Counted from the stretch's first letter, positions 655 through 19,506 are shown. The stretch is DNA of 64,000 nucleotides from Brevinematales bacterium (GCA_037479045.1 JBBFLL010000002.1:73108-137107), one strand, 5' to 3'. Numbers and translations: made by a program. The notes: a model not told the origin generated them from the sequence alone.

Positions 655-1875
655 TTATGTTCTTCTCAATAACTCACAAACTGAAGAAAAACCAAGTTTA
701 ACAAAAATTGGCAACTGTGCAAATGTTATTGCTATTGTATTCAGTAAAAGTGCAAGAGCAATCTGATAGGGCTTAATATAAAAATCAAGCTGATTTGTTC
801 CAGCCATAAGTACTGTTATGACTTCAAAAACTCCTTTCACGTTCCTTGAGCTTAAAAGTGAAGCAAAAAATATAGAAATTAAAGTGGCTATAAAAAGAGA
901 ACACAAAAGCTGGACAAATGACTCAAGGTATAGTAGTAAATTTATCCTCCCCTTTGGAATTCCCATGGCCATAAGAGCACCTATGTATGGTTGTTTTTGC
1001 CTGTAAATCATTACATAAACATTAAAGTTTACAACTACTACAATTGAAAGTACTACAATAATGATGAGAGAAATAAGTATAATCAGGAAGAAATTAAATT
1101 GTGTAGAAACATTCAAAGGATTTAAAGTAGAAAGACTTGTAATATTTATTGTAAACATTCCATCTCCAAACTCTTTTTTCATAAAGGGCAGGATGTAGTT
1201 CCAAAGTTCATCTATGTCTTTGTAGGGATTTTCCTTAAGAAATATAGCGTATTCAATTTCTTCAGGTTTTGGGAAGAAAAACTTCTCCATTTCCTCGTAA
1301 GTGAATAAAAGTCGTGGTTGTTGAAAGAAAGTAAGTTTTGTAGAGTTATATATTCCTACAACTTTGCAGGTTATAACATTGTAAAGTTTATCAGAAGTCT
1401 TACCACTTATGCGAATTACATCTCCAACCTTTATTTCTGACCTCTGTAAAAGTGAGGAAGGGATAATCACCTCTCTGCTTTTCTCTGGTAATCTTCCTTC
1501 TTTTAAATTTATAAACTTCTTTAAATACTTGTCAGCCTTCCAGTTCACACCTATCAACTCAGCCCAGCCTCCACTTGTTTCCATCCCGGTTGTTATGTAT
1601 TCCCCGTACGTTTTTATCCTCGGAGCCACATACAGGACAAAGGGAAGTTTTGAAATTTTTTCAAGCACCTCACTTTGGTTAAAGTTAGCGTTTTTATCCA
1701 CTCTGAAATTTAATTCACCAGAGAAAAGATTGTTTTGTAGTATCATTTGTCTTATAGAACCGTCTCTATATGCAAGGAGCATAATTATTATTACTAAAGA
1801 AACTACATTAACAAAGTACAACTTCCAGATTCTTTTAAATCCATGAAAAATTTCATTCAATATCATTATCCACAT
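655..1875 (-). CDS. ABC transporter permease, FtsX/MacB/LolCE-type (no fused ATPase)
   Basis: 406 aa. N-terminal TM, ~230-aa extracytoplasmic domain and a C-terminal multi-TM FtsX-like bundle. Lies 9 nt downstream of a paralogous permease gene. Confidence 0.7.
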   Translation of the reverse strand: MWIMILNEIFHGFKRIWKLYFVNVVSLVIIIMLLAYRDGSIRQMILQNNLFSGELNFRVDKNANFNQSEVLEKISKLPFVLYVAPRIKTYGEYITTGMETSGGWAELIGVNWKADKYLKKFINLKEGRLPEKSREVIIPSSLLQRSEIKVGDVIRISGKTSDKLYNVITCKVVGIYNSTKLTFFQQPRLLFTYEEMEKFFFPKPEEIEYAIFLKENPYKDIDELWNYILPFMKKEFGDGMFTINITSLSTLNPLNVSTQFNFFLIILISLIIIVVLSIVVVVNFNVYVMIYRQKQPYIGALMAMGIPKGRINLLLYLESFVQLLCSLFIATLISIFFASLLSSRNVKGVFEVITVLMAGTNQLDFYIKPYQIALALLLNTIAITFAQLPIFVKLGFSSVCELLRRT

Positions 1876-1884
1876 AGGCTTTCC

Positions 1885-3117
1885 TCAAAGTTCTCGTAAT
1901 ATTTCAACTGAACTTATCTGTCTAAGTTTTCTTATTATCATCAATATATTTGAAAAGATCATCATCAAAATAATTAGCAATGTGATCAATAATGTTGACG
2001 AATGCCCCTGGATTGTTAATCTCTGAGCACCAAATATAAATTGAAGTGGTATTATATTGGCTTCTATTCCGGATTTTTCCATAAGAGATGTTAAAAAGTT
2101 TCCAGAAACCACACCCATTATGCTAAATGTGAGTATAACTATCATAAACTCTCCCCCCAGAAGCGTTGCAATTCTATGGACTTTTACTCCCATTGCATGA
2201 TAAATCCCAATTTCCTGCAAACGGCTATCAATAGAAAGATAAATCAAAAACGATCCACATGCATAGATTAAAGTAAGTAAAACTATAAGGACACCTATAA
2301 TTACAATGGAAGTAATACTTGATATTCCACTTAAAAGTGAGGCAGAAGCAAGCGGGAATATGAATTTATATTGTTTCCCAAATTCCTTTTCAACCTCATG
2401 AATCAAAGTTTTTTTATAGGATTTATCTTTTAACTTTACCCATATTTCACTGGCAACAGGTTCGGTTGTTCCAAGAAGCTGATTTAAAAAGTCAAGATGA
2501 ACAAAACAATATAAGGCAAACTCAGAGTATATCTCCATATTGACGTAATCCAGTAGACCCGTAAGTCTGACAGTATCAAAATTAATGTACCCATCAAGAT
2601 TTTGAAGGCCAATTCCTAAAATCTCACCCTGTGTGAGATATAGATAATCTGAATGTCTGTAATACATCATTGCATCTGAAAGATTACATAACCACAGTCC
2701 TGCAAAAAGTTTCCTTCCGGGCAAAAGCAATTTCTCACTCTCAGGATCTACCCCAACAAGTATCATATATGCATCATTGTGTTCTGATTTAATATATGCC
2801 CATTTTCTCAATCTTGGTGAAGCAGAAACAACATAATCTTTACTCTTAAGAAAATTCCATAGCTTTTGCCAGGAAGGTAGTGTCTCAACCTTTTTTTCTC
2901 CATCCATAGTTATAATATCTATATGCTTTTTCTTTTCCGGAATTATTATGACATCAGAAGTAAGGCTTTGAATGGCAGAATTTTCTAAGGAATTTTTCAC
3001 AGAGAGTAAAATATTTATAGCTACTACAAGATAGAGAGTAAAAATAAAAATCATTATCCCCAGCAAACTGAAAAGGAAAATATGCTTTCTTATATTTGAC
3101 AAAATTAGCTTAATCAT
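1885..3117 (-). CDS. ABC transporter permease, FtsX/MacB/LolCE-type
   Basis: 410 aa with the same architecture as 655-1875. 4-nt overlap with the upstream gene (3114-3117). Confidence 0.7.
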   Translation of the reverse strand: MIKLILSNIRKHIFLFSLLGIMIFIFTLYLVVAINILLSVKNSLENSAIQSLTSDVIIIPEKKKHIDIITMDGEKKVETLPSWQKLWNFLKSKDYVVSASPRLRKWAYIKSEHNDAYMILVGVDPESEKLLLPGRKLFAGLWLCNLSDAMMYYRHSDYLYLTQGEILGIGLQNLDGYINFDTVRLTGLLDYVNMEIYSEFALYCFVHLDFLNQLLGTTEPVASEIWVKLKDKSYKKTLIHEVEKEFGKQYKFIFPLASASLLSGISSITSIVIIGVLIVLLTLIYACGSFLIYLSIDSRLQEIGIYHAMGVKVHRIATLLGGEFMIVILTFSIMGVVSGNFLTSLMEKSGIEANIIPLQFIFGAQRLTIQGHSSTLLITLLIILMMIFSNILMIIRKLRQISSVEILREL

Positions 3118-3995
3118 AATCCAATTCTTACTCCTGCATCCACATAAACCGATGATGATAAAACATTCATTCCAAATTCAAGATTTATGTTAAGTAAAGC
3201 AAGCATAATTTCAATTCCACCTGAAAGCACAAGTCCTTGAATTTCTTTACTACTGGAATTAACAGTTTTCTCAATGAGATTTTCAACCTCTAAAAAACTA
3301 TCCATTTTTCCCCACATATAAGTATAGTTTAACCTTGCATAGCTATTTAAGAAGAAAAAGGACTTTTCAAAAATCACTTCTACAGAAGGGCCATGATAAC
3401 TTCCATCAAAACCAAACTTTGCGTTATATTGGTTTCCGTCAATTGAAATTTCCCTGCTTTTACTATAATTTCCAGTCCAGTAATTATAACCCAAGCCAGT
3501 TTTTACTCCTATATAGATAGAGTTTTCTTCAGTAAGTTCATAAAGGATGCTTCCCCCGGCCCCAAGAGTTGTAGGACTAATATTTTCACTTCCCATCCAG
3601 CCCTTCACGTAGGTTGTCAAAAGCCATCTTGAAGGAAACATCAATATGAAATTTCCAGATATTAATGGCCATTTAAGACACGGCATTTCAAAAAGTCTTC
3701 TGTAGTCAAGTAAAGTAAAATTATTATCAAATGTATCAAATAGAGAAGAATTTACTTCACTGTACGAAATATTAAAAGAAAAAGATAAGTTCTCCTCACT
3801 CTGTAAATAAATTGAACCATTCTTTTTTACAGTAAGAATGGATGGGATACTTGCCTGTATAGTAGAATTTAAAGTACTTAAAAAAGAGTCTTTCTCTCCA
3901 CGCAACGTATCTATGTCAGAAGTCCATCCGAAAGGTAGAAAACTTGAAACTAATACTATTGATATAATTATCTTTTTCATAAAATTCCTCCTCAT
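3114..3995 (-). CDS. Secreted protein, putative outer-membrane beta-barrel (family not recognised)
   Basis: 293 aa. Signal peptide MKKIIISIVLVSSFLPFGW. Gly/Tyr/Ser/Asn-rich alternating pattern. 4-nt overlap with the upstream gene. Confidence 0.4.
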   Translation of the reverse strand: MRRNFMKKIIISIVLVSSFLPFGWTSDIDTLRGEKDSFLSTLNSTIQASIPSILTVKKNGSIYLQSEENLSFSFNISYSEVNSSLFDTFDNNFTLLDYRRLFEMPCLKWPLISGNFILMFPSRWLLTTYVKGWMGSENISPTTLGAGGSILYELTEENSIYIGVKTGLGYNYWTGNYSKSREISIDGNQYNAKFGFDGSYHGPSVEVIFEKSFFFLNSYARLNYTYMWGKMDSFLEVENLIEKTVNSSSKEIQGLVLSGGIEIMLALLNINLEFGMNVLSSSVYVDAGVRIGL

Positions 3996-5113
3996 TCCTT
4001 AACTGTCCAGGACATCTGTGGAAATGGTTTGTTATTTACATTTCCAAGATATATTGCCACTGTGATTGCACCACTTTTATTCTGTGCAAGTCCAATATCA
4101 AACCTTAAAATGGTTGCTAAACTTTCCATAATGTATATTCCCAGCAAAGGTGCAACATAAAAGCCATAGGCATAAGAAGGTGTGGTATCATAATTTCCTG
4201 CAAGATTACCATTTATACCGACAAGGAAACCGGGTATCAGTTTGATACTGTATGAGGCCAGATACCAGAATGGCGGTGTATAGAAGTAGAAGCCACCCAT
4301 CGGAGAGTAATATCTGAGTTCGATAGCTGTCCAGCCGACATAATCTCCTACCATAGAAGGTCCACCAATTGAATAAGTGGAAAATTTATAAGGTCTTGGT
4401 ATTGTTCCAATTCCTCCTGTTCCTTTCAAGTAGAAAGAAAGTGTCCACCAACCTCCAAGTGAGAAAAGTAACTGGGATTCAGCTTCCAGACTTGTAAAGT
4501 TTGTTCGTTCCAAAACCCAGTTTTCTGAAATACCGAGAGAGAGATACACACCCTTATGCGGATATGTAGGGACATATCCCTCATACCAGATATCGAAATC
4601 AGAACGCCTCGAGTTAAAAGATAAAGCCGCAGTAGTTTTTACAATTCTGTAGTTGTATTCCTTAAACTCGTTAATATTAGTTAAGAGAAGGTTTTGAATG
4701 TAATTAGCTCCGATGTTTAAGCCACAGTATGAAAGGAAAGTTGAATTTAAAGACATTCCAATGCTGTCATAACTCTGAGGATAGTACAAATAGCTGGCAA
4801 CACCTTCCTTATTTGAAAGGACAGTAGCACTACCAATATAATGCTGTGCATTATAAAACAAATGCAGGTAGGGACCTTCTTTCAGTAGATTGTAAAAACC
4901 CCCATCAATTCCAAATTGAGAATGATACTCCAGAAATTTTTCCACACCGAAAGAAGGTAAATATGAAACTGACAAAAAGCTTTGTGGAACTCTGCTACTT
5001 TCAACTGGTTTTTCTTCTTGATTCGTCAGAGAAAATACTGTGCCATATTCTTGATGTAAAATGAAAATCAAGAATATCAAAAGTATTTTTTTTCTTCTCA
5101 TATTTTTCTCCAC
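3992..5113 (-). CDS. Putative Omp85-like outer-membrane barrel without POTRA domains
   Basis: 373 aa with a signal peptide, aromatic/Gly-rich. The segment YSIGGPSMVGDYVGWTAIELRYYSP resembles the conserved GG...RGY...ELR region of Omp85/'bacterial surface antigen' barrels (memory-based). Confidence 0.4.
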   Translation of the reverse strand: MEKNMRRKKILLIFLIFILHQEYGTVFSLTNQEEKPVESSRVPQSFLSVSYLPSFGVEKFLEYHSQFGIDGGFYNLLKEGPYLHLFYNAQHYIGSATVLSNKEGVASYLYYPQSYDSIGMSLNSTFLSYCGLNIGANYIQNLLLTNINEFKEYNYRIVKTTAALSFNSRRSDFDIWYEGYVPTYPHKGVYLSLGISENWVLERTNFTSLEAESQLLFSLGGWWTLSFYLKGTGGIGTIPRPYKFSTYSIGGPSMVGDYVGWTAIELRYYSPMGGFYFYTPPFWYLASYSIKLIPGFLVGINGNLAGNYDTTPSYAYGFYVAPLLGIYIMESLATILRFDIGLAQNKSGAITVAIYLGNVNNKPFPQMSWTVKE

Positions 5114-5124
5114 TTTTTTATATT

Positions 5125-6078
5125 TTATTCTATCCCAAGTCTTTTAAAACACACTTGCTCGACCCATTCTTTATTAAGCCTTCTTGTCACATCAGACCAG
5201 TTCGTAAATTCTTCATAGGTATCAAGAACCGAAACCTCCGCACTTTCTCTACTTCTTCTTACTACAAGTCTACTTTCTTTATCTATCCAGTATATGCAGA
5301 ATTTGCTAAGCGTTCTACCCATAAGAAGTCTCAAAAGAAAATCTTCTGTATCCATCACTACTTTTATCGTATCATAAGTCTTGTAAGTAGTTTCAATTTT
5401 TTCTTCTTTTTCAATTTTTAGTCTACCAATAACTGGTGTCCTGAGAACATTAGGAGAAACAAATTGAGCCATACCACCCTTTTGAATATCCAGAAAACCA
5501 ATAGGAAAAGACATCGTAGCAGCAACATAGTTGAAAAAAGGTAGATTTTTATCTACTTTTGTCCTCCCTTTTTGGATTTTTGTTTCATATCCGTTCCATA
5601 TACCCCACTCAGATTCATAAATTCCACTTGACTCATCAAAGAATTCATGATGATACATCCATTGGCCAGCACTGTTTTTTGCCCTTCTGTTTGAAAAAAC
5701 AGCGTCGTATTTTATCACTTGAAGTTTCTCAAGATCAATAAGTTCAACGCTATCAAATTTATCAAGACTTTCGGGAAGAAAGGCTTGGGATTTAATGTCT
5801 TTAGCGTAAGAAGTATAATAGAAACTTCTACCATATATTCTAAGATAGCATTTATTATCAGTCTCTTCTTTTATCCATACATAGTGTTGATAACCTATGT
5901 GCATCCCAGCCATATCGTATAAAGAATAACGTATATAGGCTTTAGATGATAATAAGTTTTTATTAATTAGCAATATACCTTCTTTTGAATAAATAAAATT
6001 AGAAAGAAATAGCTGAGTTGAAAAAATAATTGAAAATCCAACAAAATTTTTCAGTTTTTTGATTATCATTATTAACAT
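5125..6078 (-). CDS. Secreted protein, paralog A of a 3-member family (function unknown)
   Basis: 317 aa with an N-terminal signal-like segment. About 90% identical by eye to 12879-13826, including a 173-nt perfect DNA match. C-terminus is NKEWVEQVCFKRLGIE. Confidence 0.75.
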   Translation of the reverse strand: MLIMIIKKLKNFVGFSIIFSTQLFLSNFIYSKEGILLINKNLLSSKAYIRYSLYDMAGMHIGYQHYVWIKEETDNKCYLRIYGRSFYYTSYAKDIKSQAFLPESLDKFDSVELIDLEKLQVIKYDAVFSNRRAKNSAGQWMYHHEFFDESSGIYESEWGIWNGYETKIQKGRTKVDKNLPFFNYVAATMSFPIGFLDIQKGGMAQFVSPNVLRTPVIGRLKIEKEEKIETTYKTYDTIKVVMDTEDFLLRLLMGRTLSKFCIYWIDKESRLVVRRSRESAEVSVLDTYEEFTNWSDVTRRLNKEWVEQVCFKRLGIE

Positions 6079-6133: not shown

Positions 6134-7069
6134 TCAATCTACCCCAAGTTTCTTAAAACACACCTGCTCGACCCATTCTTTATTAAGCTTTTCTGCCACA
6201 TCAGACCAGTTAGTAAACTCTTCGTATGCATCAAGAATTAAGTATTCTGAATTATTCTTATTAATTTTAACCACCATTTTTGTGTTTTTATCTATCCAGT
6301 AGATACAAAATTCCCTCGCCCATCTTCCAGCCATCAGACGAAGTAAAAAATCATGTACATCTGTCCCCAGCTTAATCGTATCAAATTCTCCCAGGACTGT
6401 ATTGATTTTTTCCTCTTTTATTATTTTGAAACTTCCAATAACAGACTCTTTAAAGTACTCAGGAAATGCAAATTGAAATTTTCTTTTGCCTGAAAAGTCA
6501 GTAAACCCAACTGGAAATCTCATACTTAATGCCGTGTAGTTTAAAACAGGTAATGATAAATCCACTTTTGTTCTACCTTTAAAAATCTTCATTTCATAAC
6601 CATTCCACATACCATATTCTGTCTCAAAAAAAGAATTTGATATATCTAATCTATCACTTATGTACATATATTGACCTCGACCTATTTTCTCTCTGCTGTT
6701 AGAATAGACTCCTCTCTCTTCTATTACCTGTGATTTTTCCAGATCTATTATGGCAAATGTTTGAAAACCTTCTAATTTCTCAGGCAAAAAGGCGTGTGAT
6801 TTCTTATCTTTTGCATAGGAGGAATAGCAGAAAATATTTTCATATATCTTAAGATAATTTTTCTCGTTTTCTTTTTCTTTTACCCATACATGATGAGCGT
6901 ACCCTGTGAGTTTGCCGCTTAAATCATAGAAGCCATATCTTAAATAAGCTTTCTCGGGAATTGAATCTACATTTAAAAAAGACTGATTTTTGTTGAGTTC
7001 TTGACCGCCAGATCTCTGAAAAAGGAGGATTAAACAGAATGAAAAAAGAAGTAATCTTACTATAAACAT
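6134..7069 (-). CDS. Secreted protein, paralog B of the same family (more divergent)
   Basis: 311 aa. Signal peptide MFIVRLLLFSFCLILLFQRSGG. Alignable end to end with paralogs A and C (YLRYGFYDLSG..., MWNGYEMKI.KGRTKVD, CIYWIDK, NKEWVEQVCFKKLGVD). Confidence 0.75.
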   Translation of the reverse strand: MFIVRLLLFSFCLILLFQRSGGQELNKNQSFLNVDSIPEKAYLRYGFYDLSGKLTGYAHHVWVKEKENEKNYLKIYENIFCYSSYAKDKKSHAFLPEKLEGFQTFAIIDLEKSQVIEERGVYSNSREKIGRGQYMYISDRLDISNSFFETEYGMWNGYEMKIFKGRTKVDLSLPVLNYTALSMRFPVGFTDFSGKRKFQFAFPEYFKESVIGSFKIIKEEKINTVLGEFDTIKLGTDVHDFLLRLMAGRWAREFCIYWIDKNTKMVVKINKNNSEYLILDAYEEFTNWSDVAEKLNKEWVEQVCFKKLGVD

Positions 7070-8687: not shown

Positions 8688-9943
8688 ATTGCTTTCTCAA
8701 CCTCTTTGTTTTTTTCACCGAAAACTAATTTAAAAAACTTTAAAAGTAAAAATATTAGATATGAAAATCCCCCAATCCATATTCCTGAATTTCTTAGAAA
8801 TATATTAAAAGTCTTTATATTTTCACCTTTTATTCCCGAAGATACAAGTGTTAATAATGGTTTCCATATGTAACTATCCAGATTCAATGTAATCTTAATC
8901 CAATTAATGTAAAATCCACTGAGAAAAGAAAACATAAAAAAGTAAAAAATGAAAAGATAAATAATTACAAATCTTTGAATCGATGGGGGATAAGAAGAAA
9001 AGGGAGATTTTTTCTCCTTTTTAACTATACTTTTTATCCAGTTTTTAATTTTTGTTTGCAAGCTTACAATTCCAAGAATATCGCTTAAAAACCAGTAGCC
9101 ATCCATTTTTAAAAATGGATTGAAAGTAGAAATGCTGAAAAGTGGAAAGAGTATTAAATAATCCTTTATTGCACCTGATTGGGTCAGAAAAAATGTAAAG
9201 AACAATGGAAGGAGAAAAATGAGTTCGAAATAAAAACCAGCAATTGAAACAATAGCTCTTTCCTTGCGAGGTAAATTCCAGGATTCATGAGTGTCTGTGT
9301 ACATTACAAACATAAAATAGTAAAATCCAAAGCCTATCCCATCTTTTGAAGGAACATTGTATTTTGCCAAAGCCACTGCATGACCCATTTCGTGAAAAAC
9401 TGTTTTGAAATATGGATAGATTACAAAGATTATAAAGTAATCCCATATCCCATAATACTTGATTGTTATATGTTTTGAAAAAAAAGAAAAATAGAATAAA
9501 AAAGCTTCGAGCAGACAAAATAAAGTTGTTACTCCAATTACAACTGGTTTTTTAAGAAAAAATTCAAAAATCTTCAAAAATCCAGCAAGTTTTGAAATAT
9601 CAAAAAGCTTTATTCTTAACCAGAAGTTTTCCATTCTGTTTCTAAAAGTAAAGTTTTCTTCTTTCTCTTTGAAATTGAAAGTTAAAAGTTTTTTTTGTTC
9701 TAAAAGATTTAAAACATTCTGTACAGACTTTTCATCTATTCCTAACTCTTCTCCTATTACCTTTCGAATTTCAGTGACTACCCCTCCCTCTTTTTTTTCT
9801 AAAAGGCTGATAAATTTTCTTACATTGCTATTTATTTCTACGTCACCAAGAGAAAAAGTAACTCTATATCTGATTTCATTTGAACTGGTATCGAGTGGAG
9901 AGATTTTGTAATTCCTTAAATAAACTTTATCATCATCCCTCAT
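8684..9943 (-). CDS. Polytopic membrane zinc metalloprotease (HExxH, M50-like) with an N-terminal PqqD/RRE-like domain
   Basis: 419 aa. FHEMGHAVAL (HExxH), then NPFLKMDGYWFLSD (M50-type N..P...DG motif), and multiple TM helices. N-terminal ~90 aa (NVRKFISLLEKKEGGVVTEIRKVIGEELGIDEKSVQNVLNLLEQKKLL) matches the PqqD-like winged-helix pattern. 4-nt overlap with the downstream gene. Confidence 0.6.
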   Translation of the reverse strand: MRDDDKVYLRNYKISPLDTSSNEIRYRVTFSLGDVEINSNVRKFISLLEKKEGGVVTEIRKVIGEELGIDEKSVQNVLNLLEQKKLLTFNFKEKEENFTFRNRMENFWLRIKLFDISKLAGFLKIFEFFLKKPVVIGVTTLFCLLEAFLFYFSFFSKHITIKYYGIWDYFIIFVIYPYFKTVFHEMGHAVALAKYNVPSKDGIGFGFYYFMFVMYTDTHESWNLPRKERAIVSIAGFYFELIFLLPLFFTFFLTQSGAIKDYLILFPLFSISTFNPFLKMDGYWFLSDILGIVSLQTKIKNWIKSIVKKEKKSPFSSYPPSIQRFVIIYLFIFYFFMFSFLSGFYINWIKITLNLDSYIWKPLLTLVSSGIKGENIKTFNIFLRNSGIWIGGFSYLIFLLLKFFKLVFGEKNKEVEKAI

Positions 9944-11234
9944 TTTTCAATCCTTCAGGTACGATAATCGCATAATTTACAAGATTTTTAAGTATCTCTA
10001 CCAGCTTTTTTTCTGGAATACGCTTTTTCGTTTTAGGACTTACTATTCCTCTCTTTTTTATATCCTCAATAACCATTTTTACACTCTTTTCGGTTTTCAC
10101 AGTAAGAAAAGGATAGAGATTTATTAAGTATAAAGTGTTTTTTTCTTTTCTAAAAAAAACATATGAATGTAGAAAAAATTTATTTTTAATTTCAACTTCA
10201 TAATTCTTCACTTTTTGTTGCCAAATTTCCAATAGTTCCATATCAAAAAATCTGAAAAAGAAAAAAACTTCTTTCAATTGCCTTCCATCCCATCCCAAAC
10301 ACTTTTTTCTAAGATTTTCATATAATAAGTTATATATAGTATTGCATAGTAACTGCCCTGTTTCGTTAAAGCTTAACATAGGTTTAAATTCAAAAATTTC
10401 TCCAATACTAAATAGGATTTTACCATTAAACTTTGGAAGTGTCATTATTGGTACTACAGGAGAACACGTCATTAAATGTAATATTGGAAAAATTGAAGTA
10501 ATAACTAAAGACTTTTTCCCATTCATAGTATAAACAAAAAATTTTGCTCTATCTCTATTATAATCACAGAATGCTTTTTTTATATACTCTTGAATCTTAA
10601 CATCGTTATTATCTAAGTTAATTAAGGGTAAATCTCCAAAAATAACAATAGGAAATCCGTTTCTTAATGATTGCAACATATTAAGAGGAAAATTTTTTTT
10701 ATCTTCCAAAAAACAAAAAGAAATAGTTCCAGAAAAATCAGGAAAATTAAAAAATATTCTATCAGACTCCAACTTCACATACTTTTTGTATTTTTCATAA
10801 TGCTTCTGTCTAAAGAGACTTAAAAAATATTTATACACATCACCAGATCTTAGGGCAAGTACATTTATATAACTTATATTCAACTTTTTAATTAGATAAA
10901 AGACGCTTTCCAACATCACTTCACTATGAAAGATAAAAAAGATAGCTGTTTTAAATTCATTTAGTTTTTTGATTGTATCATTTTGAAATATGCAAGTATC
11001 ACTTTCTATCAAAAACCATCGTATTCTTAAATTTGTTAATTTATTTAAAGTTTTAGAAAAACATTTGATTTTTCTATTTTGACTATTAATTATTTTAACA
11101 TTATTAAAAACTCTAAAAAGAAAACTTGCAAACCATAAGTCTTTCAAGCTTTTCTCCGTGTTTTCACTGATATAGTAATATATATAGGTAAAAATAAAAA
11201 AAATTGTGTAGATAATTCTTTTCAGGAACAACAT
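9933..11234 (-). CDS. Hypothetical protein (433 aa), N-terminal TM; possible acyltransferase-like enzyme, unassigned
   Basis: Long ORF with an 11-nt overlap with the downstream protease gene. No motif recognised with confidence. The FHSEVMLE segment only loosely recalls the HX4(D/E) motif of LpxL-type acyltransferases. The C-terminal ~60 aa is again winged-helix/PqqD-like by eye. Confidence 0.55.
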   Translation of the reverse strand: MLFLKRIIYTIFFIFTYIYYYISENTEKSLKDLWFASFLFRVFNNVKIINSQNRKIKCFSKTLNKLTNLRIRWFLIESDTCIFQNDTIKKLNEFKTAIFFIFHSEVMLESVFYLIKKLNISYINVLALRSGDVYKYFLSLFRQKHYEKYKKYVKLESDRIFFNFPDFSGTISFCFLEDKKNFPLNMLQSLRNGFPIVIFGDLPLINLDNNDVKIQEYIKKAFCDYNRDRAKFFVYTMNGKKSLVITSIFPILHLMTCSPVVPIMTLPKFNGKILFSIGEIFEFKPMLSFNETGQLLCNTIYNLLYENLRKKCLGWDGRQLKEVFFFFRFFDMELLEIWQQKVKNYEVEIKNKFFLHSYVFFRKEKNTLYLINLYPFLTVKTEKSVKMVIEDIKKRGIVSPKTKKRIPEKKLVEILKNLVNYAIIVPEGLKNEG

Positions 11235-11341: not shown

Positions 11342-12565
11342 TTAGTTAAGATTTTTAAGCAATATAACTGCGTTACTTCCTCCAAATGCAAAGGCATTTA
11401 CCAATGCACAATTTACTTCATAATCTATAGACTCGTTGGCAACATAATCTAAATCACACTCTGGATCAGGTTCATCTAAGTTTATAGTTGGATGTAATTT
11501 ATTTTCTTTCATCTGAATTATAGCTGCTATAGTTGAAATTACCCCACTTGCCCCCATTGTATGTCCAATCATAGATTTTACCGAATTAACCTTTAATTTA
11601 TATGCTTTGTCTTTAAACATATTTTTGATGGCAATTGTCTCTTCAAAATCGTTCACTGGAGTCCCTGTTCCATGTGCTTGAATATAATTTACTTTTTCAA
11701 ACAATTCAGGATAATCCTGAAAACTTTTCTCTATAGCTTTTTCTATTGATTTGTGATTTGTATGAGTGAGATGGGTTGTATCATTTGAATACCCATAACC
11801 ACAAACTTCTGCCAGCGGAATTAAACCAAATTTTTCACAAATCTCTTCTTTTGTAATTATTACTGCTCCAGCACCTTCTCCCAGAACAGTGCCCTTTCGT
11901 CGTTTACTAAAAGGAGAAGGAACTTTGGTCGGATTTTCATTATCCTTTTCGAGAACATTCAACTTATTCCATCCTATTATACTTACTGGGAAAAGAGGTG
12001 TATCCGTTCCTCCAGCAACGACCAGATCAAGAACCCCCCATTTTATAAATAGATACCCCAAGCCTATAGCATGTAAAGAAGAAGAACAAGCTGTATCTAC
12101 AGTAATTGAAAAATCTGAAAGTTTCCATTTTTCCGAAACAAGAGCCGTAGAAGAACACCTCATACTCCGGACTAAAAATAAGGGATTAATAAAATTCTCT
12201 TGTCCCTTATTATAATATCCATAGGTCTTATCCAACGTTTCATTCCCATTGTAACAGGTTCCAATAAAAATTCCTTTTTTTAGTTCTATTCTTTCAAAAA
12301 TAGGATTTAAATTATAAGCCTTTATTGCTTCATTTACAGAATAATCCAGAAAATAAAATGCTCTATCTTCTCGCATCTTTTCAATACCAATTTTTTTTAA
12401 ATCTTTATTTTTGACTTCTCCACCTATTTTCACAGGAATATTAGAATAATCATCATTTTCTAGTTTCGAAATTTGAGAAATTCCAGAAAGAATAGAACGC
12501 GAAAACTCATTGATTCCAAAAGAAGCCGGGCTTAAAACACCCATACCAACGACAAATATTTTCAT
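11342..12565 (-). CDS. Beta-ketoacyl-ACP synthase, FabF/KAS-II-like (cluster-dedicated)
   Basis: 407 aa. Cys-His-His triad motifs DTACSSSLHAIG, AHGTGTPVND and IGHTMGASG, with the C-terminal NAFAFGGSNA. Confidence 0.85.
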   Translation of the reverse strand: MKIFVVGMGVLSPASFGINEFSRSILSGISQISKLENDDYSNIPVKIGGEVKNKDLKKIGIEKMREDRAFYFLDYSVNEAIKAYNLNPIFERIELKKGIFIGTCYNGNETLDKTYGYYNKGQENFINPLFLVRSMRCSSTALVSEKWKLSDFSITVDTACSSSLHAIGLGYLFIKWGVLDLVVAGGTDTPLFPVSIIGWNKLNVLEKDNENPTKVPSPFSKRRKGTVLGEGAGAVIITKEEICEKFGLIPLAEVCGYGYSNDTTHLTHTNHKSIEKAIEKSFQDYPELFEKVNYIQAHGTGTPVNDFEETIAIKNMFKDKAYKLKVNSVKSMIGHTMGASGVISTIAAIIQMKENKLHPTINLDEPDPECDLDYVANESIDYEVNCALVNAFAFGGSNAVILLKNLN

Positions 12566-12570
12566 AATAA

Positions 12571-12822
12571 TTACCCTTGGAAGTTTTCAAGGTATTCCCG
12601 GATTTTTGATATGGTTAGTAAACCAGATGTCTCTTCAGGAGGAAAGTTTATATTAAATTTTTTCTCAATCTCAAATAGAATTTCAAGAAGAGATAATGAA
12701 TCAGCTTTGAGGTCTTCAACAAAATGAGTATTTTCACTGATATCCGCCGGCGATATCTTTAAAATTTCAGCAATTATATTTTTGATTTCCATAATATCCT
12801 TTTCTGAAATTTGCATTTTCAA
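12571..12822 (-). CDS. Acyl carrier protein (cluster-dedicated)
   Basis: 83 aa. Phosphopantetheine-attachment motif LKADSLSLLEI. Lies 5 nt upstream of the KS gene. Confidence 0.8.
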   Translation of the reverse strand: MKMQISEKDIMEIKNIIAEILKISPADISENTHFVEDLKADSLSLLEILFEIEKKFNINFPPEETSGLLTISKIREYLENFQG

Positions 12823-12878: not shown

Positions 12879-13826
12879 CTACTCGACTCCAAGTCTTTTA
12901 AAACACACCTGCTCAACCCATTCCTTGTTAAGTTTTTCTGCTACTTCAGACCAGTTTGTAAATTCTTCGTAGGTGTCAAGAATCGAAACCTCCGCACTTT
13001 CTCTACTCCTTTTTACTACAAGTCTACTTTCTTTATCTATCCAGTATATGCAGAATTTGCTAAGCGTTCTACCCATAAGAAGTCTCAAAAGAAAATCTTC
13101 TGTATCCATCACTACTTTTATCGTATCATAAGTCTTGTAAGTAGTTTCAATTTTTTCTTCTTTTTCAATTTTTAGTCTACCAATAACCGGTGCCCTGAGA
13201 ATATTAGGAGAAACAAACTGAGCCATACCACCCTTTTGAATATCCAAAAAGCCCACAGGAAAGGACATTGTACCAGCAACATAGTTAAAGAAAGGAAGAT
13301 TTGTATCAACTTTCGTCCTACCCTTTTGGACTTTTGTTTCATATCCATTCCATGTTCCCCACACAGATTCATAAATTCCATTTGACTCATCAAAGGATTC
13401 ATGATGATACATCCATTGGCCAGCACTATTATTTGCCCTTTTGTTTGAAAAAACAGCATCGTATTTTATCACTTGAAGTTTCTCAAGATCAATAAGTTCA
13501 ACGCTATCAAATTTATCAAGACTTTCTGGAAGGAAAGCTTGTAATTTAACATCTTTCGCGTAAGAAGTATAATAGAAACTCCTCCCATATATTTTAAGAT
13601 AGCATTTATTATCAGTTTCCTCTTTTATCCATACATAGTGTTGATAACCCATGTGCTTTCCAGCCATATCGTATAAAGAATAGCGTATATAGGCTTTCAA
13701 AGGTATTAAGTTTGGATTAAGAAACAATTTCTTTATCGATTGAGAATAAGTTGAATTGATAAGAAAAATGTAATTAATCATTACGCAGCATATCAGAAAA
13801 TTAGCCCCTCTTTTTTTAACCAACAT
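12879..13826 (-). CDS. Secreted protein, paralog C of the 3-member family
   Basis: 315 aa. Near-identical to paralog A except for the N-terminal signal region. First gene after the candidate precursor. Confidence 0.75.
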   Translation of the reverse strand: MLVKKRGANFLICCVMINYIFLINSTYSQSIKKLFLNPNLIPLKAYIRYSLYDMAGKHMGYQHYVWIKEETDNKCYLKIYGRSFYYTSYAKDVKLQAFLPESLDKFDSVELIDLEKLQVIKYDAVFSNKRANNSAGQWMYHHESFDESNGIYESVWGTWNGYETKVQKGRTKVDTNLPFFNYVAGTMSFPVGFLDIQKGGMAQFVSPNILRAPVIGRLKIEKEEKIETTYKTYDTIKVVMDTEDFLLRLLMGRTLSKFCIYWIDKESRLVVKRSRESAEVSILDTYEEFTNWSEVAEKLNKEWVEQVCFKRLGVE

Positions 13827-13953: not shown

Positions 13954-14055
13954 CTACTCAGCTGCACAACAGTTACCACAACCAGCGCCACCAAAATCTA
14001 CCTTTTCTTCTACTTCTTCAACCTCAAATACTAAATAATCTTGTCTCTCATTCAT
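13954..14055 (-). CDS. Candidate RiPP precursor peptide, 33 aa: MNERQDYLVFEVEEVEEKVDFGGAGCGNCCAAE
   Basis: Hand-translated; too short for the ORF track. The ATG (14055-14053) overlaps the TGA (14054-14052) of the upstream gene as ATGA. GGAGGG lies 5 nt upstream. Acidic leader, Gly-Gly at residues 22-23, and a 10-residue core with 3 Cys. Sits immediately downstream of the rSAM and pseudo-rSAM genes. Confidence 0.65.
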   Translation of the reverse strand: MNERQDYLVFEVEEVEEKVDFGGAGCGNCCAAE

Positions 14056-15020
14056 GGTATCCCTCCTTTCTTATAGATTTCTCCCCTTTCCTCTTTTTTT
14101 ATTACTTTTAAGTATTTTTTTCTTAATAAGCATTCATTTTTTTTGCTACTATTAAGACTTAAACACTTAAGACCATAACAAAACAGAGAAAACTTACATT
14201 CTTTAAGATTATTACACTTCTTTTTCACTGGTTCATAAGAGAGAAGTCTTTCAGGACAATAGTCCTTTTTCCCTATATCATCATAACATACCTTCCTATA
14301 TATAAAAGGACAGATTAGAAAAACTTTATCTTTCAACACATTTTCAAAATTCTCGAAAAACAAATCGCCTTTTCCCCAGCACCCATCCTTAAAGTCTAAA
14401 AAATCACCAATGTTTTCTGGTTTATCAGAAAGAATAACCAGCCTTATATTTGAAAATAAATCTTCCATGCCAAACGGGTTAAAGTTCTCTATTTCATTTT
14501 CGTTTACAGAAAGCCACAAAGCACCTTTTTGAAAACCATACGAATTCACTTTTTTTGCAATTTCAAGCGTTAATTCAAGGTTTTCAAAATCACTCCAGAA
14601 ATTTACTTTTTCAATATTTTCTTCTTTTTTAATTTTTTCAACCCAATTTTTAAGTTTACTTTCATTCCAGCTTACATTTTTTCTTTCTCTTTTTAAATAC
14701 CCCGGCTTTCCAACAAGAAGAAAAACTTCCTTGTAGCTGGTTTTAAGTTTGTTAACTTTGCTTTCAAGAAAAGTCAGAATTTCCCTTTTTTCCTCTTCTT
14801 CGCTGTAGCAGGTTATATACCATTTTTTAAGCCAGTCTGAAATCTCTTTTTCAGAAAAAGGATATCTATTATCAGGCATAAAACTTTCATTTTTATCCTG
14901 GATTTCTTTAAGTGATTTCCATTTTGATAAATCAATTTCTTCAAGTTCACCTGTTATTAGACTCAGAATGAAATACCTTTCATCTTTATTAATTAAAAAA
15001 CAACCTTCTGCAATTCTCAT
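14052..15020 (-). CDS. Maturase-like accessory protein lacking the radical SAM CxxxCxxC motif, with a Cys-rich (9 Cys) SPASM-like C-terminus ('pseudo-rSAM')
   Basis: 322 aa with no CxxxCxxC anywhere. The last ~110 aa contain 9 Cys, including CNNLKECKFSLFCYGLKC. Lies 3 nt downstream of the rSAM gene. Confidence 0.55.
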   Translation of the reverse strand: MRIAEGCFLINKDERYFILSLITGELEEIDLSKWKSLKEIQDKNESFMPDNRYPFSEKEISDWLKKWYITCYSEEEEKREILTFLESKVNKLKTSYKEVFLLVGKPGYLKRERKNVSWNESKLKNWVEKIKKEENIEKVNFWSDFENLELTLEIAKKVNSYGFQKGALWLSVNENEIENFNPFGMEDLFSNIRLVILSDKPENIGDFLDFKDGCWGKGDLFFENFENVLKDKVFLICPFIYRKVCYDDIGKKDYCPERLLSYEPVKKKCNNLKECKFSLFCYGLKCLSLNSSKKNECLLRKKYLKVIKKEERGEIYKKGGIP

Positions 15021-16163: not shown

Positions 16164-16311
16164 TCCCCCGACCTTTTTTAATTCTTAAGTTAATATTCTT
16201 TATTTCAAACTTTTTATATTGTTTTAAATTAAATTTTTACACCTTTTACTAAAACTACCAGAAATTTTTCCTCAATTTTGAAATTTTTTATAAAAATTTT
16301 TTTGTTTTATC

Positions 16312-16342
16312 ATTATACATCTGGGGGGGGGTGGATTGTCAA
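16312..16342 (-). promoter_or_regulatory. Sigma70-type promoter for the rSAM operon: TTGACA-N19-TATAAT, with the homopolymer tract inside the spacer
   Basis: Revcomp of 16337-16342 (tgtcaa) is TTGACA. Revcomp of 16312-16317 (attata) is TATAAT. The spacer 16318-16336 is 19 nt and includes nine consecutive C on this strand. The rSAM ATG is ~150 nt downstream. Confidence 0.6.
16323..16331. repeat. Homopolymeric G9/C9 tract
   Basis: Nine consecutive G on the + strand in an otherwise extremely AT-rich intergenic region. Confidence 0.95.
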
Positions 16343-16545
16343 GGTTTTTTGGAAAAATTTAAAAATTTTTTATAATTTTTATATTTGAAAAAGTAATTAA
16401 ATTGTTTTATATTAAAATAATTATAAAAAGGAGAATAAATTTAATTTATTATTTTTAAAAAGATTAAATATCTTATAGAGAGAATAGGATATCTTGACTT
16501 AGTTAGATTTAATTTTACCTTTTTAATTTACAGAATAATTGTTAA

Positions 16546-16710
16546 AAAACCCAATACAGATTTTCTGACTACATAACGGCAAATCTTTACGGAAGATTTG
16601 TGTTTAACCAGTATGCAGATGTTGCCCCACTCGAAAATAGTGTTCGCAAAACCTACTTCGATCCAGGTTATGGACTACAGATTGGGATTGACTTAAGAAT
16701 TACCTTCTAA
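16546..16710 (+). pseudogene. Relic of the C-terminal ~54 codons of an outer-membrane beta-barrel protein gene (no start, no N-terminal part)
   Basis: Frame open only from 16546. Translates to KTQYRFSDYITANLYGRFVFNQYADVAPLENSVRKTYFDPGYGLQIGIDLRITF*, with alternating-hydrophobic terminal strands ending in Phe, an OMP C-terminal signature. Locally higher GC than the flanking spacer. The stop codon overlaps the prfA stop convergently. Confidence 0.45.
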
Positions 16711-17768
16711 CCAAGATTTTTGAGTAATTCCTGCTGTTCATTCATAATGCAGGCGTTGATAAGTTCATCACAATCCCCATCAAGAATCAAATCAAGTTTA
16801 TAAAGAGTTAAGTTTATTCTATGGTCTGTAACCCTGTTCTGGGGAAAGTTATATGTTCTTATTTTGTCGGATCTGTCTCCACTTCTGATTGAGGTTTTCC
16901 TTATCTGACTTTGTTCTTCTATTTTTTTCTGCATTTCCATATCAAATAGCTTTGATCTTAAAATTCTTAATGCTGTAGCTCTATTTTGGAGCTGAGATCT
17001 TTCTTCCTGACAGGCAACTACAATGCCAGTGGGGATATGGGTTATTCTGACAGCCGATTCAGTCTTATTAACATACTGTCCACCTGCACCACCAGCTCTG
17101 AAAGTATCAATTTTTAAGTCTTTTGGGTCTATTGCTATGTCAACTTCGTCAACTTCTGGAAGAACAACTACCGAAGCTGTTGAAGTATGAATTCTGCCAC
17201 CTGCTTCAGTTACTGGAATTCTCTGAACTCTGTGAACACCCGATTCATACTTGAGATGTGCATAAACATCTTTACCTTTTATAGAAAAAACTACTTCTTT
17301 ATAGCCGCCGAGTTCTGTTGGATTAAAGTCAAGCACTTCATATTTCCACTTTTTCCTTTCTGCATATCTTGTATACATTCGGAATAAATCTCCAGCAAAG
17401 ATTGCTGCTTCTTCTCCACCAGTTCCAGCCCTTATTTCTACTATAACATTTTTTGTTGCCATTTCATCTTTTGGAAGAAGGAGTAATAAAATTTCATTTT
17501 CAAGCTCTTCCTTTCTTTTCTTTATGTTTTCAATATCTTCTTTTGCTATTTTTTTCAGTTCTTCATCTTCTTCTGAATTGATTAATTCAAATAAGTCTTT
17601 TTCTTCCTTTTCGAGTTTGCCAAATTCTCTATACTTATCAACCAGTTCCTCAAGTTCGCTTCTTTCTTTTGCAACCTTTATGTATTCACTACTACCAGGC
17701 GGTAATTCTGATAGCCTTTTTTCAAGCTCTTCGTATTTCTTGATTAATTCTAAGGCTTTTGGGTGCAT
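16707..17768 (-). CDS. prfA: Peptide chain release factor 1
   Basis: 353 aa. GGQ motif (AGGAGGQYVNKTESAVRITHIPTG), PVT tripeptide (RF1-type PxT) and a typical RF1 N-terminus. Confidence 0.95.
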   Translation of the reverse strand: MHPKALELIKKYEELEKRLSELPPGSSEYIKVAKERSELEELVDKYREFGKLEKEEKDLFELINSEEDEELKKIAKEDIENIKKRKEELENEILLLLLPKDEMATKNVIVEIRAGTGGEEAAIFAGDLFRMYTRYAERKKWKYEVLDFNPTELGGYKEVVFSIKGKDVYAHLKYESGVHRVQRIPVTEAGGRIHTSTASVVVLPEVDEVDIAIDPKDLKIDTFRAGGAGGQYVNKTESAVRITHIPTGIVVACQEERSQLQNRATALRILRSKLFDMEMQKKIEEQSQIRKTSIRSGDRSDKIRTYNFPQNRVTDHRINLTLYKLDLILDGDCDELINACIMNEQQELLKNLG

Positions 17769-17781
17769 ACTATCTCCTTAA

Positions 17782-19506
17782 CTATATAGAAATCTGTATG
17801 TTAAATAGTCTATTGTATATACCTTTTTGTGAAATTAATTCGCTGTGAGTTCCAATTTCAACAATTTTACCGTTTTCTATAACTATTATCTTATCAGCTT
17901 TCATAATTGTTGAAAGTTTATGTGCAATTATTATTGTTGTTTGTTTACCTAAAATTGTTTCCATAGCTTTTTTTATTGATTCTTCAGACTCAGCATCAAG
18001 AGAACTTGTAGCCTCATCAAGTATCAAGATTTTTGGTTTTCTCAATATTGCTCTTGCAAGGGCTATTCTCTGTCTTTCTCCACCTGAAAGTTTGACACCT
18101 CTATCTCCTATCTCAGTTTGATAGCCTTTTTCAAGTTTTGAAATAAAATTGTGTGCGTTAGCAATTTTTGCTGCTTCTATTATTTCTTCCATTGTAGCAT
18201 GAGGGTTTGAGATTTTTATATTTTCTTCTATAGTTCCAGAAAATAGTATATTTTCTTGAGTTACAAGACTTATTTTTTCTCTCAATAAGTGTGTGTCAAT
18301 TGTAAAAATATCCTTTTCATCTATTAATACTTTTCCAGACGTGGGATAGTATAAGCCAAGTATTAAAGAAACTATTGTAGATTTTCCAGCACCACTATGA
18401 CCAACAATTGCTATCGTTTCGCCAGGCTTAATATTAAAATTTATATCTTTTAAAATATAATTATCCCCTTCATAAGCAAAAAAAACATTTTCAAAATCAA
18501 TTTTGCCTTCCAGTTTATTCAATTTAATAAGATTTTCAATTTCTTTTGTTTCATAATCGATAAGCTCAAATATTCTTTTACCAGCAGGTATAAGTTTTTT
18601 TAATACCATAAAAACATCAGTTGATTTACTTAAAGGTTCTGCAAGAAGTAAACAAAGAGTTATAAAACTTATGATTTCAGATGGTGTAGCAAGACCGTTT
18701 TTTACAATTATTGAACCAAAAAATAAAATAATGATTATCCCCAAAGCCCCAAGAAATTCTGATGTGGGTGTCCCAAGAAATCTCACCCTTATTTCTTTTT
18801 TTGTAGAAGATAAATAATCTCTATTTACATTGAAGAATTTGTCTTTCATATTATTTTCTATAGAAAAGCCTTTTATGATTTCAATTCCATATATAGATTC
18901 CTGTATTACAGAAGTGACGTTTGAAATGTTTTTTTGAACTGTTTGACTTAACTTCTGCACAAGTCCCCCAATTCCACCGAGAACTATTGCGATTATTGGA
19001 GTTATAGAAAAGAAATAAAGTGAAAGTTTGAAATTTATGAAGAATAAAATCACTACAACAGCAATTAAAGTAAGTGGCTGTATTAAAAGCTCTACCATTA
19101 CATTCATAAAAAAAACTTCAATTATCTGAACATCATTAATCAACCTTGAGATAATATCACCGAGTTTATTTTTTTTAAAATAAGACATAGGAAGAGATAA
19201 AACTTTTTCATAAACATTCTTTCTTATGTCATGCATAACATTCATTGCAAGTGAAGTAGATGAAACAAAAATAAGATAATGCGATAATACCCACCCAAAC
19301 GCAAGTCCAATAAGGATAAGAATTGATGTTATATCACTACCTTGCAAATTCTTTTCAATAAAGGCTTGAGAAAAATACTTTGTGGCAAAAAAAGCTGCTC
19401 CAACCTTTGCAAAAACAAAAAATAAAGAAAGTATAATAGAAAAAATAAACAAAAATGGATATTTAAATCCATATCCTAAAATTCGCTTTAAAACTTTATT
19501 GTCCAT
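17782..19506 (-). CDS. ABC exporter, fused TMD-NBD, MsbA/lipid A flippase-like
   Basis: 574 aa with 6 TM in the N-terminal half. Walker A GHSGAGKST, signature LSGGERQR, Walker B ILILDEATS. No N-terminal C39 peptidase domain. Confidence 0.85.
   Translation of the reverse strand: MDNKVLKRILGYGFKYPFLFIFSIILSLFFVFAKVGAAFFATKYFSQAFIEKNLQGSDITSILILIGLAFGWVLSHYLIFVSSTSLAMNVMHDIRKNVYEKVLSLPMSYFKKNKLGDIISRLINDVQIIEVFFMNVMVELLIQPLTLIAVVVILFFINFKLSLYFFSITPIIAIVLGGIGGLVQKLSQTVQKNISNVTSVIQESIYGIEIIKGFSIENNMKDKFFNVNRDYLSSTKKEIRVRFLGTPTSEFLGALGIIIILFFGSIIVKNGLATPSEIISFITLCLLLAEPLSKSTDVFMVLKKLIPAGKRIFELIDYETKEIENLIKLNKLEGKIDFENVFFAYEGDNYILKDINFNIKPGETIAIVGHSGAGKSTIVSLILGLYYPTSGKVLIDEKDIFTIDTHLLREKISLVTQENILFSGTIEENIKISNPHATMEEIIEAAKIANAHNFISKLEKGYQTEIGDRGVKLSGGERQRIALARAILRKPKILILDEATSSLDAESEESIKKAMETILGKQTTIIIAHKLSTIMKADKIIVIENGKIVEIGTHSELISQKGIYNRLFNIQISI

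Follow-up and report, generated by a model that had tools for sequence, protein, structure and literature searches.

The window analysed here, a stretch of 64,000 nucleotides from a Brevinematales bacterium (GCA_037479045.1, JBBFLL010000002.1:73108-137107), carries on its minus strand a 33-codon open reading frame (ORF) that directly follows a gene encoding a 322-amino acid (aa) protein and, ahead of that one, a gene for a radical S-adenosylmethionine (rSAM) enzyme. This arrangement raises the question of whether so short an ORF is a gene at all and, if so, whether its product is the substrate of the proteins encoded next to it, as proposed in an earlier note made from the sequence alone, in which the ORF was regarded as a candidate precursor of a peptide that is made on the ribosome and modified after translation (RiPP). 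The analysis described below indicated that the 33-codon ORF is a genuine gene. It codes for a precursor from a family of small Cys-containing peptides that is undescribed so far, occurs in at least three bacterial phyla, and is predicted to be modified by the enzymes encoded nearby. For the complete proposal, i.e. that the ORF encodes the precursor of an uncharacterized, radical-SAM/SPASM-dependent RiPP family, together with the whole pathway outlined in this work, we estimate a probability of about 0.8.

Sequence and Translation Signals of the 33-Codon Gene

Inspection of the minus strand between positions 13954 and 14055 returned exactly the ORF and the translation given in the earlier note, i.e. 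33 codons, three of them for Cys, followed by a TAG stop codon that is included in the interval (Table 1). The ATG start codon (14055-14053) overlaps the TGA stop codon (14054-14052) of the 322-aa ORF (14052..15020, minus strand) in an ATGA arrangement whose coordinates agree with those proposed before, and the GGAGGG sequence that had been placed 5 nt upstream of the ATG is indeed present at 14066-14061, overlapping an AAGGAGG site at 14068-14062 with a spacing of 5 nt to the start codon of the peptide gene. AAGGAGG sites were also found ahead of the peptide genes in three of the related loci described below (L007, L010, and L013). The ATGA coupling to the 322-aa gene, hereafter the partner gene, is restricted to this species, the two genes being separated in other loci by a gap of 44-266 nt or by an intervening gene.

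The peptide is encoded in a single copy in the window, as judged by tblastn, and its 33-aa product had already been called by gene predictors on 16 contigs of the same species; the gene is missing from the annotation of GCA_049968535.1. The sole name that the peptides of the family carry in public sources is "hypothetical protein." No terminator or structured RNA was found 3' of the peptide gene (fold z-score of 0.15), and no Rfam or tRNA features were found in the window.

Small Cys-containing ORFs Accompany Homologous Radical-SAM Genes in Distant Genomes

A search for small ORFs next to rSAM homologues of other genomes, which the earlier note had suggested as a check, was carried out by following rSAM homologues at 37-48% identity to their contigs, and it revealed that the small ORF is conserved. 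Each traced contig contained the rSAM gene, then a homologue of the partner gene encoding a protein of 320-360 aa, and then a small ORF. This order was observed at the loci L007, L008/L013, L010, and L012, whose rSAM proteins show the 37-48% identity mentioned above, as well as at the closely related L014, and overall it is shared by more than 10 loci that represent at least 3 phyla. The hosts of the precursors are Spirochaetota, Bacillota, Bacteroidota, and unassigned metagenome contigs, with GC contents of 25-49%, and precursor homologues were identified at L007, L010, L012, L013, L014, L015, L020, L024, L043, L057, and L065. The small ORFs of the unassigned loci L007 and L010 encode MEEIRRDDAVLFDVEPVEEKVDFGGGNCGWGCVAD and MSQEDNEVEEHFEVVDMEEKLDFLSGGGCGFKCS, respectively, and that of L008 (the same locus as L013), from a Bacillota metagenome-assembled genome (MAG), encodes ...DMFEIVDIEEKLDFAVSNNHKCSVF. 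The small ORFs of L012 (unassigned) and L014 (a Bacteroidales MAG) encode ...FEIIDLEEKLEF followed by a 48-residue core with 12 Cys in the former and by a 39-residue core with 7 Cys in the latter.

Comparison of the precursors revealed a leader motif common to all homologues, F-[ED]-[IV]-x-x-[IVLM]-E-E-K-[LV]-[DE]-F, within which residues F10, E16, E17, K18, and F21 (numbered as in the window peptide) are invariant in the 12 aligned precursors. The cores that follow Phe21 range from 11 to 48 residues and are hypervariable in sequence, with at least one Cys in each of the 12 precursors and only Cys in common. When loci of 30%, 44%, and 49% GC were compared, the differences between the motif codons were mostly at the third position, with E-E-K-[V/L]-D-F being kept, which argues for selection acting on the protein. 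The family thus presents two features of RiPP precursors, i.e. a conserved leader joined to a hypervariable core and a short gene with conserved linkage to genes for modifying enzymes. Taken together, small Cys-containing ORFs are conserved beside homologous maturases in distant genomes, so that the lack of conservation which the earlier note had named as a refuting result was not observed. This supports the proposal that a real RiPP precursor for the adjacent rSAM system is encoded by the 33-codon ORF, with translational coupling to the upstream gene.

The leader motif was also back-translated into a degenerate 36-nt DNA pattern, which gave one match in the window, against 0 expected from 100 shuffles, and one match, located inside the small ORF, in each related family locus. 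A scan of a metagenome collection with this pattern alone returned 52 loci, and in most of them the motif falls within unrelated proteins of large size, mainly a marine protein that was met repeatedly and a second recurrent protein of 370 aa. At eight loci the motif lies in a short ORF that ends 12-41 residues further on, with a Cys-containing tail. Two of these eight are re-finds (L019, which equals L007, and L051, which comes from this species), and the remaining loci (L015, where two copies occur, L020, L024, L043, L057, and L065) provide eight further ORFs by our count. According to tblastn, all short-ORF loci carry genes for the partner, the rSAM enzyme, a relative of the 433-aa or of the M50-like protein, or an acyl carrier protein (ACP) and a ketosynthase (KS), all of which are described below; the same search found no family genes at the control scan loci L030, L031, and L042.

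These data also bear on the possibility that the ORF arose by chance in AT-rich DNA and has no product. Its length of just 33 codons and its lack of annotation in GCA_049968535.1 would be in keeping with a chance ORF, but it has a strong Shine-Dalgarno sequence and the ATGA coupling, its amino acid sequence is conserved over three phyla and 25-49% GC with mostly synonymous changes in the motif, and the motif-only scan leads back to the same gene neighborhood. The comparative data therefore effectively refute this explanation, whose probability we regard as negligible.

The Conserved Leader Motif Ends at Phe21 and Precedes a Cys-containing Core

The earlier note had taken the Gly-Gly pair of the window peptide as the end of the leader. 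This assignment was not borne out by the alignment, since the conserved element stops at Phe21 and the residues directly after the invariant Phe are GG, AV, LS, CG, CN, SY, GY, KP, GL, or ED, with GG present in 2 of the 12 precursors. Because the conserved element ends at Phe21, the GG of the window peptide most likely represents the first two residues of the core rather than a double-glycine cleavage signal. This is consistent with the absence of a C39 domain, and the earlier note had likewise stated that no C39 peptidase-ABC exporter is present: Peptidase_C39 was not found in the ABC protein encoded at 17782-19506 (the one classical ABC gene tested), in the scanned cluster proteins, or in the gene lists of the related loci. 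A bacteriocin with a double-glycine leader, which would be cleaved behind GG and depend for export on a C39-peptidase ABC transporter whose gene lies elsewhere, would match the GG at residues 22-23 behind an acidic leader, but GG occurs in so few of the aligned precursors, no C39 domain accompanies them, and an M50-like protease is conserved instead. The bacteriocin explanation was rejected, and we consider it highly improbable.

Within the cores, 11 of the 12 sequences contain a Cys that is preceded by an Asn at a distance of at most four residues (18 N..C pairs; shuffle P of ~0.008 and 0.0007, in a test that is optimistic because the sequences are partly related). Five family peptides were compared with the NCBIfam and Pfam models at E values of up to 10 and matched none of them, the presence of a SCIFF peptide model in that library not being confirmed. 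The likeness to the SCIFF/ranthipeptide layout that had been pointed out before is thus not reflected in any model match of the peptide, which is not of the SCIFF, Clo7bot, or CefA family.

The Radical-SAM Enzyme Resembles Maturases of Cys-rich Peptides

The product of the rSAM gene in the window matches the Pfam Radical_SAM model with 51 bits (cut-off of 29.5). The gene is intact and codes for 446 aa in 8 of the 10 assemblies of the species, and this full-length allele (P0002) possesses a SPASM domain (TIGR04085, 48 bits versus a cut-off of 27) with the complete CX9-15GX4C ... CX2CX5CX3C ... C arrangement, which is incomplete in the window allele. The best NCBIfam matches of the enzyme are maturases of Cys-rich peptides, i.e. 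those of the Clo7bot (TIGR04334; 175 bits, cut-off of 600), TIGR04463 (173 bits, cut-off of 525), CefB (NF038107; 164 bits, cut-off of 600), PapB (NF047865; 99 bits, cut-off of 340), and SCIFF (ScfB, TIGR03974; 92 bits, cut-off of 425) systems, all scores being those of the full-length protein, and similar scores below the cut-offs were obtained with the rSAM proteins of P0004, P0008, and L014. The nearest solved structure is that of the thioether synthase CteB (5wgg, E value of 1.4e-12). Judging from these matches, the enzyme is placed near the thioether-forming peptide maturases but is a member of no curated family.

The Partner Protein as a Putative Degenerate Radical-SAM/SPASM Paralogue

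The 322-aa partner protein has an identical counterpart, named hypothetical protein, in the MAG of a Brevinematia bacterium (Spirochaetota), and it has no match in Pfam or NCBIfam. Its family is rare, with three matches among 5.8 billion clustered proteins in a profile search; a word-based homologue search with the 322-aa protein recovered only the protein itself, the profile search added just two proteins, and a scan of a genome collection returned one locus, identical to L008. The motifs CX12GX4C and CX5-6CX5CX3-4C...C are conserved in the family. Alignment of the partner and rSAM families by hhalign (E value of 2.8e-4, probability of 41%) was collinear over the full length and placed the SPASM Cys residues in register, with a lone "NWC" at the place of the CX3CX2C motif of the maturase, and the SPASM model TIGR04085 gave a weak match in 3 of 8 partner members (best E value of 0.043). 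These alignments lend moderate support to the view that the partner may be a degenerate radical-SAM/SPASM paralogue devoid of the SAM cluster. Neither the partner family nor that of the 433-aa protein gave a meaningful sequence match to Protein Data Bank (PDB) chains, and the AlphaFold2 model of the partner, built on a 3-sequence alignment, reached a mean predicted local distance difference test score (pLDDT) of 39.4, too poor to be used.

Genes Linked to the Precursor Gene

The genes that follow prfA (16707-17768) on the minus strand are listed in order in Table 1. The gap between prfA and the rSAM gene (16164-16706; 540 nt) contains no coding-strand ORF of at least 25 aa and no Rfam match, and it presumably holds the promoter or regulatory region of the cluster. 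Downstream of the peptide gene lie the ACP, KS, 433-aa orphan, M50-like protease, and MacB/FtsX permease genes, none of which had been recognized in the earlier note.

Table 1. Features of the precursor locus in the window, in their order on the minus strand
Feature	Position	Strand	Characteristics
Radical-SAM peptide maturase, truncated allele, 379 aa	15024..16163	minus	CX3CX2C present (CNCRCPYC, residues 100-107); SPASM stops after CX13GX4C
Junction of 201-nt in-frame deletion in the rSAM gene	15028/15027	minus	relative to eight other assemblies of the species
Partner protein, 322 aa	14052..15020	minus	CX12GX4C and CX5CX5CX4C ... C kept; without CX3CX2C
Shine-Dalgarno sequence AAGGAGGG	14061..14068	minus	5 nt before the peptide ATG, within the last codons of the 322-aa gene
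Precursor peptide gene	13954..14055	minus	33 aa, MNERQDYLVFEVEEVEEKVDFGGAGCGNCCAAE, stop codon TAG; leader residues 1-21, predicted core GGAGCGNCCAAE (residues 22-33)
Conserved leader motif codons	13993..14028	minus	FEVEEVEEKVDF, residues 10-21
315-aa protein	12879..13826	minus	hydrophobic N terminus, signal peptide by eye
Acyl carrier protein	12571..12822	minus	DSL motif; PP-binding called in the same gene of L001
FabF-like ketosynthase	11342..12565	minus	DTACSSS, HGTGT, and GHTMGASG stretches; 316 bits versus FabF equivalog cut-off of 494
433-aa orphan protein	9933..11234	minus	N-terminal hydrophobic helix, FH...D motif; conserved in the family
M50/site-2-protease-like membrane metalloprotease, 419 aa	8684..9943	minus	HEMGH, NPFLKMDG; candidate leader peptidase
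DUF4116-repeat protein, 474 aa	7263..8687	minus	hydrophobic N terminus; cluster membership uncertain
Paralogues of the 315-aa protein	6134-7069 and 5125-6078	minus	hydrophobic N termini; no Pfam or NCBIfam match
Two proteins without Pfam match	3992-5113 and 3114-3995	minus	from Pfam scan
Two MacB/FtsX-type permease genes	655..3117	minus	candidate export or immunity system

Four families show conserved linkage to the peptide, i.e. the rSAM/SPASM maturase, the 320-360-aa partner, a 415-437-aa orphan protein (433 aa in the window), and the M50-like metalloprotease. Homologues of the latter were found at L010, L012, L013, L014, L015, and L024. It has the HExxH and NPxxxxDG motifs and scores just below the cut-off of the Pfam Peptidase_M50 model (26.9 versus 27.2 bits), and it matches the daptide intramembrane protease model NF041824 with an E value of 1e-22 (81 bits, cut-off of 300). 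In a set of 1.84 billion representative proteins, the family of the 433-aa protein counts five relatives; nine of its members were scanned against Pfam with no match. The AlphaFold2 model of this protein, made from the single sequence, has a mean pLDDT of 39.8, and hhalign against Escherichia coli LpxL gave an E value of 0.015 and a probability of 3%, with a motif-level resemblance (FHxxGxxE...D); that the 433-aa protein might be an LpxL-like acyltransferase is only a guess.

ACP and KS genes are located inside or next to the cluster in three distinct loci, i.e. the window, L015, where they follow the protease gene, and L013, where a complete type II set (acyltransferase, ketoreductase, ACP, dehydratase, and two KS) comes after the protease gene. 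This gene content suggests that acylation may occur in a subfamily. GNAT domains were not found among the eleven cluster proteins scanned. FtsX/MacB/ABC genes were also observed at L010, L014, L024, and L065.

The window cluster contains three paralogous proteins of 311-317 aa with hydrophobic N termini and no Pfam or NCBIfam match, one of which is encoded directly after the precursor gene; immunity, receptor, and carrier functions are candidate roles for them. Proteins like the 315-aa one in size and position are present at other loci, and no similarity was detected between it and the similarly placed 289-aa proteins. By eye, the 474-aa DUF4116 protein ends in GHG ... SCSAG, a pattern similar to the His/Cys dyad found in peptidases of the caspase-like type (clan CD). 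At L024 (4717-7683) and L065 (1-1398), a protein of ~988 aa stands in the cluster where the 433-aa family would be; it contains an Asp-rich "NDDLEDW" motif and repeated GGW/QxxDGGWG motifs and looks like a terpene synthase/cyclase or prenyltransferase, so that decoration with another kind of lipid, an isoprenoid, could occur in that subfamily.

A Proposed Pathway for the Modification of the Peptide

On the basis of this gene content, we propose that the peptide would dock, through its FExxxxEEK[LV][DE]F leader motif, on recognition domains at the N termini of the maturase and the partner, and that the rSAM enzyme would then link the sulfur of a core Cys to a carbon atom in a neighboring residue. 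The product would be a thioether of the sacti- or ranthipeptide type, with Asn as a candidate acceptor. The M50-like membrane protease would cut off the leader at or near the invariant Phe21, and the MacB/FtsX-type ABC proteins would export the product. In the loci with ACP and KS genes, the window included, the peptide may also gain an acyl chain. A more specific version of this pathway, which we advance tentatively and consider rather unlikely as a whole, would lead to a hybrid product, i.e. an rSAM cross-linked Cys peptide onto which a non-GNAT enzyme, the orphan 415-437-aa protein, would transfer an acyl chain built on the ACP and KS of the cluster; a "dead" rSAM/SPASM paralogue would be the obligatory partner in maturation and provide leader binding or auxiliary Fe-S clusters.

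The same set of genes is open to the interpretation that the peptide is not a secreted bioactive compound but a scaffold, from whose C terminus a small redox cofactor or a metabolite would be released, in the way that pyrroloquinoline quinone (PQQ) arises from PqqA and mycofactocin from MftA. In favor of this, the cluster combines a very short peptide with a dedicated protease and a radical-SAM/SPASM enzyme, and the partner could act as a PqqD-like chaperone. However, such scaffolds have invariant core residues, whereas the cores of this family vary from 11 to 48 residues and share only Cys, and the cluster is accompanied by MacB/FtsX exporters and by proteins with signal-like N termini. A role as cofactor scaffold therefore appears improbable.

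Disrupted Alleles and the Proposed Requirement for the Radical-SAM Enzyme

Several observations weigh against a modified peptide that depends on the rSAM enzyme, one of them coming from the window itself. The earlier note had not recognized that, in comparison with eight other assemblies of the species, the final 67 codons of the rSAM gene are missing from the window. The 201-nt deletion removes residues 380-446, i.e. the CX2CX5CX3C...C half of SPASM; it is clean, with no direct repeat evident at its junction, it is found only in the window and in L006, and the missing segment corresponds to L001 11137-11337. With this part of SPASM gone, the pathway of this strain is probably impaired and may be inactive. 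Moreover, the rSAM gene is a 101-aa remnant in L024 (996-1301) and is fragmented in L065 (3610-4994), and at both loci the partner and the peptide are intact, as are adjacent proteins of 285-296 aa with hydrophobic N termini. This decay could mean that the rSAM enzyme is not the essential one. Other assemblies carry disruptions in the partner gene, which is consistent with relaxed selection: in L069 (GCA_017880035.1, 1330-3602) the partner gene is interrupted close to its 3' end by an insertion sequence (IS) element, which encodes a 215-aa transposase bearing an InsA/IS1595-type zinc ribbon, ~14 nt being duplicated, and in L073 (1513-2578) a 1-nt indel shortens the partner protein to 298 aa. 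Both assemblies have an unaltered peptide gene. These alleles may reflect frequent inactivation of the cluster, a common fate of secondary-metabolite loci that are costly; alternatively, the rSAM enzyme would be less central than assumed.

Further points on the same side concern the assignments made above. The maturase, with 164-175 bits against cut-offs of 525-600, belongs to no characterized family, the models of the partner and the 433-aa protein reached a pLDDT of only ~39-40, and L010, L012, and L014 lack ACP and KS genes. Likewise, the Asn-Cys statistic was derived from partly related sequences, and the chemistry proposed for the peptide would follow solely from family resemblance.

The main alternative is that the precursor is real but that the essential chemistry, e.g. 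acylation or another Cys modification, is performed by the partner, the 433-aa protein, and the ACP/KS, the rSAM enzyme being dispensable. It would account for the truncation in the window and L006, for the remnant and the fragments beside the intact partner and peptide genes of L024 and L065, and for the translational coupling of the peptide to the partner rather than to the rSAM enzyme. Nevertheless, an intact full-length rSAM gene lies directly upstream of the partner gene in 8 of the 10 assemblies of the species and in L007, L010, L012, L013, L014, and L020, the partner is also broken in some assemblies (L007, L069, and L073), and genes that look fragmented may be products of faulty assembly where metagenome contigs have low coverage. 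We regard a dispensable rSAM enzyme as unlikely, and a precursor modified by the rSAM/SPASM enzyme remains the preferred interpretation.

Discussion

A Cys peptide modified by a radical-SAM/SPASM enzyme is, as a general kind, well known, and the family described here has points in common with several such systems. Like the ranthipeptide/SCIFF systems (CteB, Tte1186, PapB, and NxxcB), it combines a short precursor, an acidic leader, and a Cys-containing C-terminal core with an adjoining radical-SAM/SPASM maturase. It differs from them in its leader motif, FExxxxEEK[LV][DE]F, in the lack of any model match of the peptide, and in the score of its maturase, far under the 340 and 425 bits required for PapB and ScfB. 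The SCIFF peptide model has six Cys in about 45 aa, against 3 Cys in the 33 aa of the window peptide, and the Asn-Cys spacing of the family recalls that of the NxxC beta-thioether peptides, in which Asn lies near Cys. To our knowledge, the SPASM-like partner, the 433-aa orphan protein, the M50-like protease, and the ACP/KS do not form part of the described ranthipeptide clusters.

The models that fit the maturase best, at 140-180 bits and nearly over the full length, are those of Clo7bot (TIGR04334), TIGR04463, CefB (NF038107), and CcpM (TIGR04068), and the long cores of L012, L014, and L043, with Cys every 3-6 residues, bear a likeness to the "Cys-every-fifth" peptides. In contrast to the members of these NCBIfam Cys-rich systems, the family of the window reaches about one-third of the cut-offs (525-600 bits), and its peptides match no model. 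As far as we know, the NCBIfam families of rSAM enzymes for Cys-rich peptides have been defined only bioinformatically.

With the lipidated RiPPs (lipolanthines, goadvionins, lipoavitides, and selidamides) the family shares the presence of ACP and KS genes in or beside the cluster, to which L013 adds acyltransferase, ketoreductase, dehydratase, and second KS genes. GNAT-superfamily acyltransferases are named as the acylating enzymes of the lipidated RiPP classes (review, PMC13647313), whereas no GNAT was found among the eleven proteins of the window cluster, and the scaffold would be made by a radical-SAM enzyme rather than by a lanthipeptide or avionin synthetase; lipidation is in this case a genomic inference. 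The 419-aa protein, a polytopic membrane protein with HExxH and NPxxxxDG motifs, resembles the daptide protease NF041824 and the M50 peptidases, but it falls below both cut-offs, and the scanned cluster proteins match no other daptide family model. Finally, two adjacent related proteins acting on one short peptide would recall the paired maturases TrnC/TrnD of thuricin CD, HxsB/HxsC, and PqqE/PqqD. A synergy of two rSAM enzymes is reported for thuricin CD (PMC12093266). Unlike these paired maturases, the partner of the window has lost CX3CX2C and ~100 barrel residues and keeps only the SPASM-like Cys pattern.

A description of this type of cluster was not found in the literature searched, the coverage of which is incomplete. 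What appears to be new is the precursor family with its leader signature, the conserved orphan partners, a possible pseudo-enzyme, and a possible non-GNAT lipidation. The family has no Pfam or NCBIfam model, and its simple leader signature can be used for mining. Three orphan families gain a biosynthetic context, i.e. the SPASM-like partner without SAM cluster, the 415-437-aa protein, and the M50-like protease. If the link to the ACP and the ketosynthase is functional, the cluster would represent a GNAT-free route to lipidated ribosomal peptides, and the natural loss-of-function alleles, i.e. the rSAM deletion, the IS insertion, and the frameshift, constitute ready controls for linking the genes to their product.

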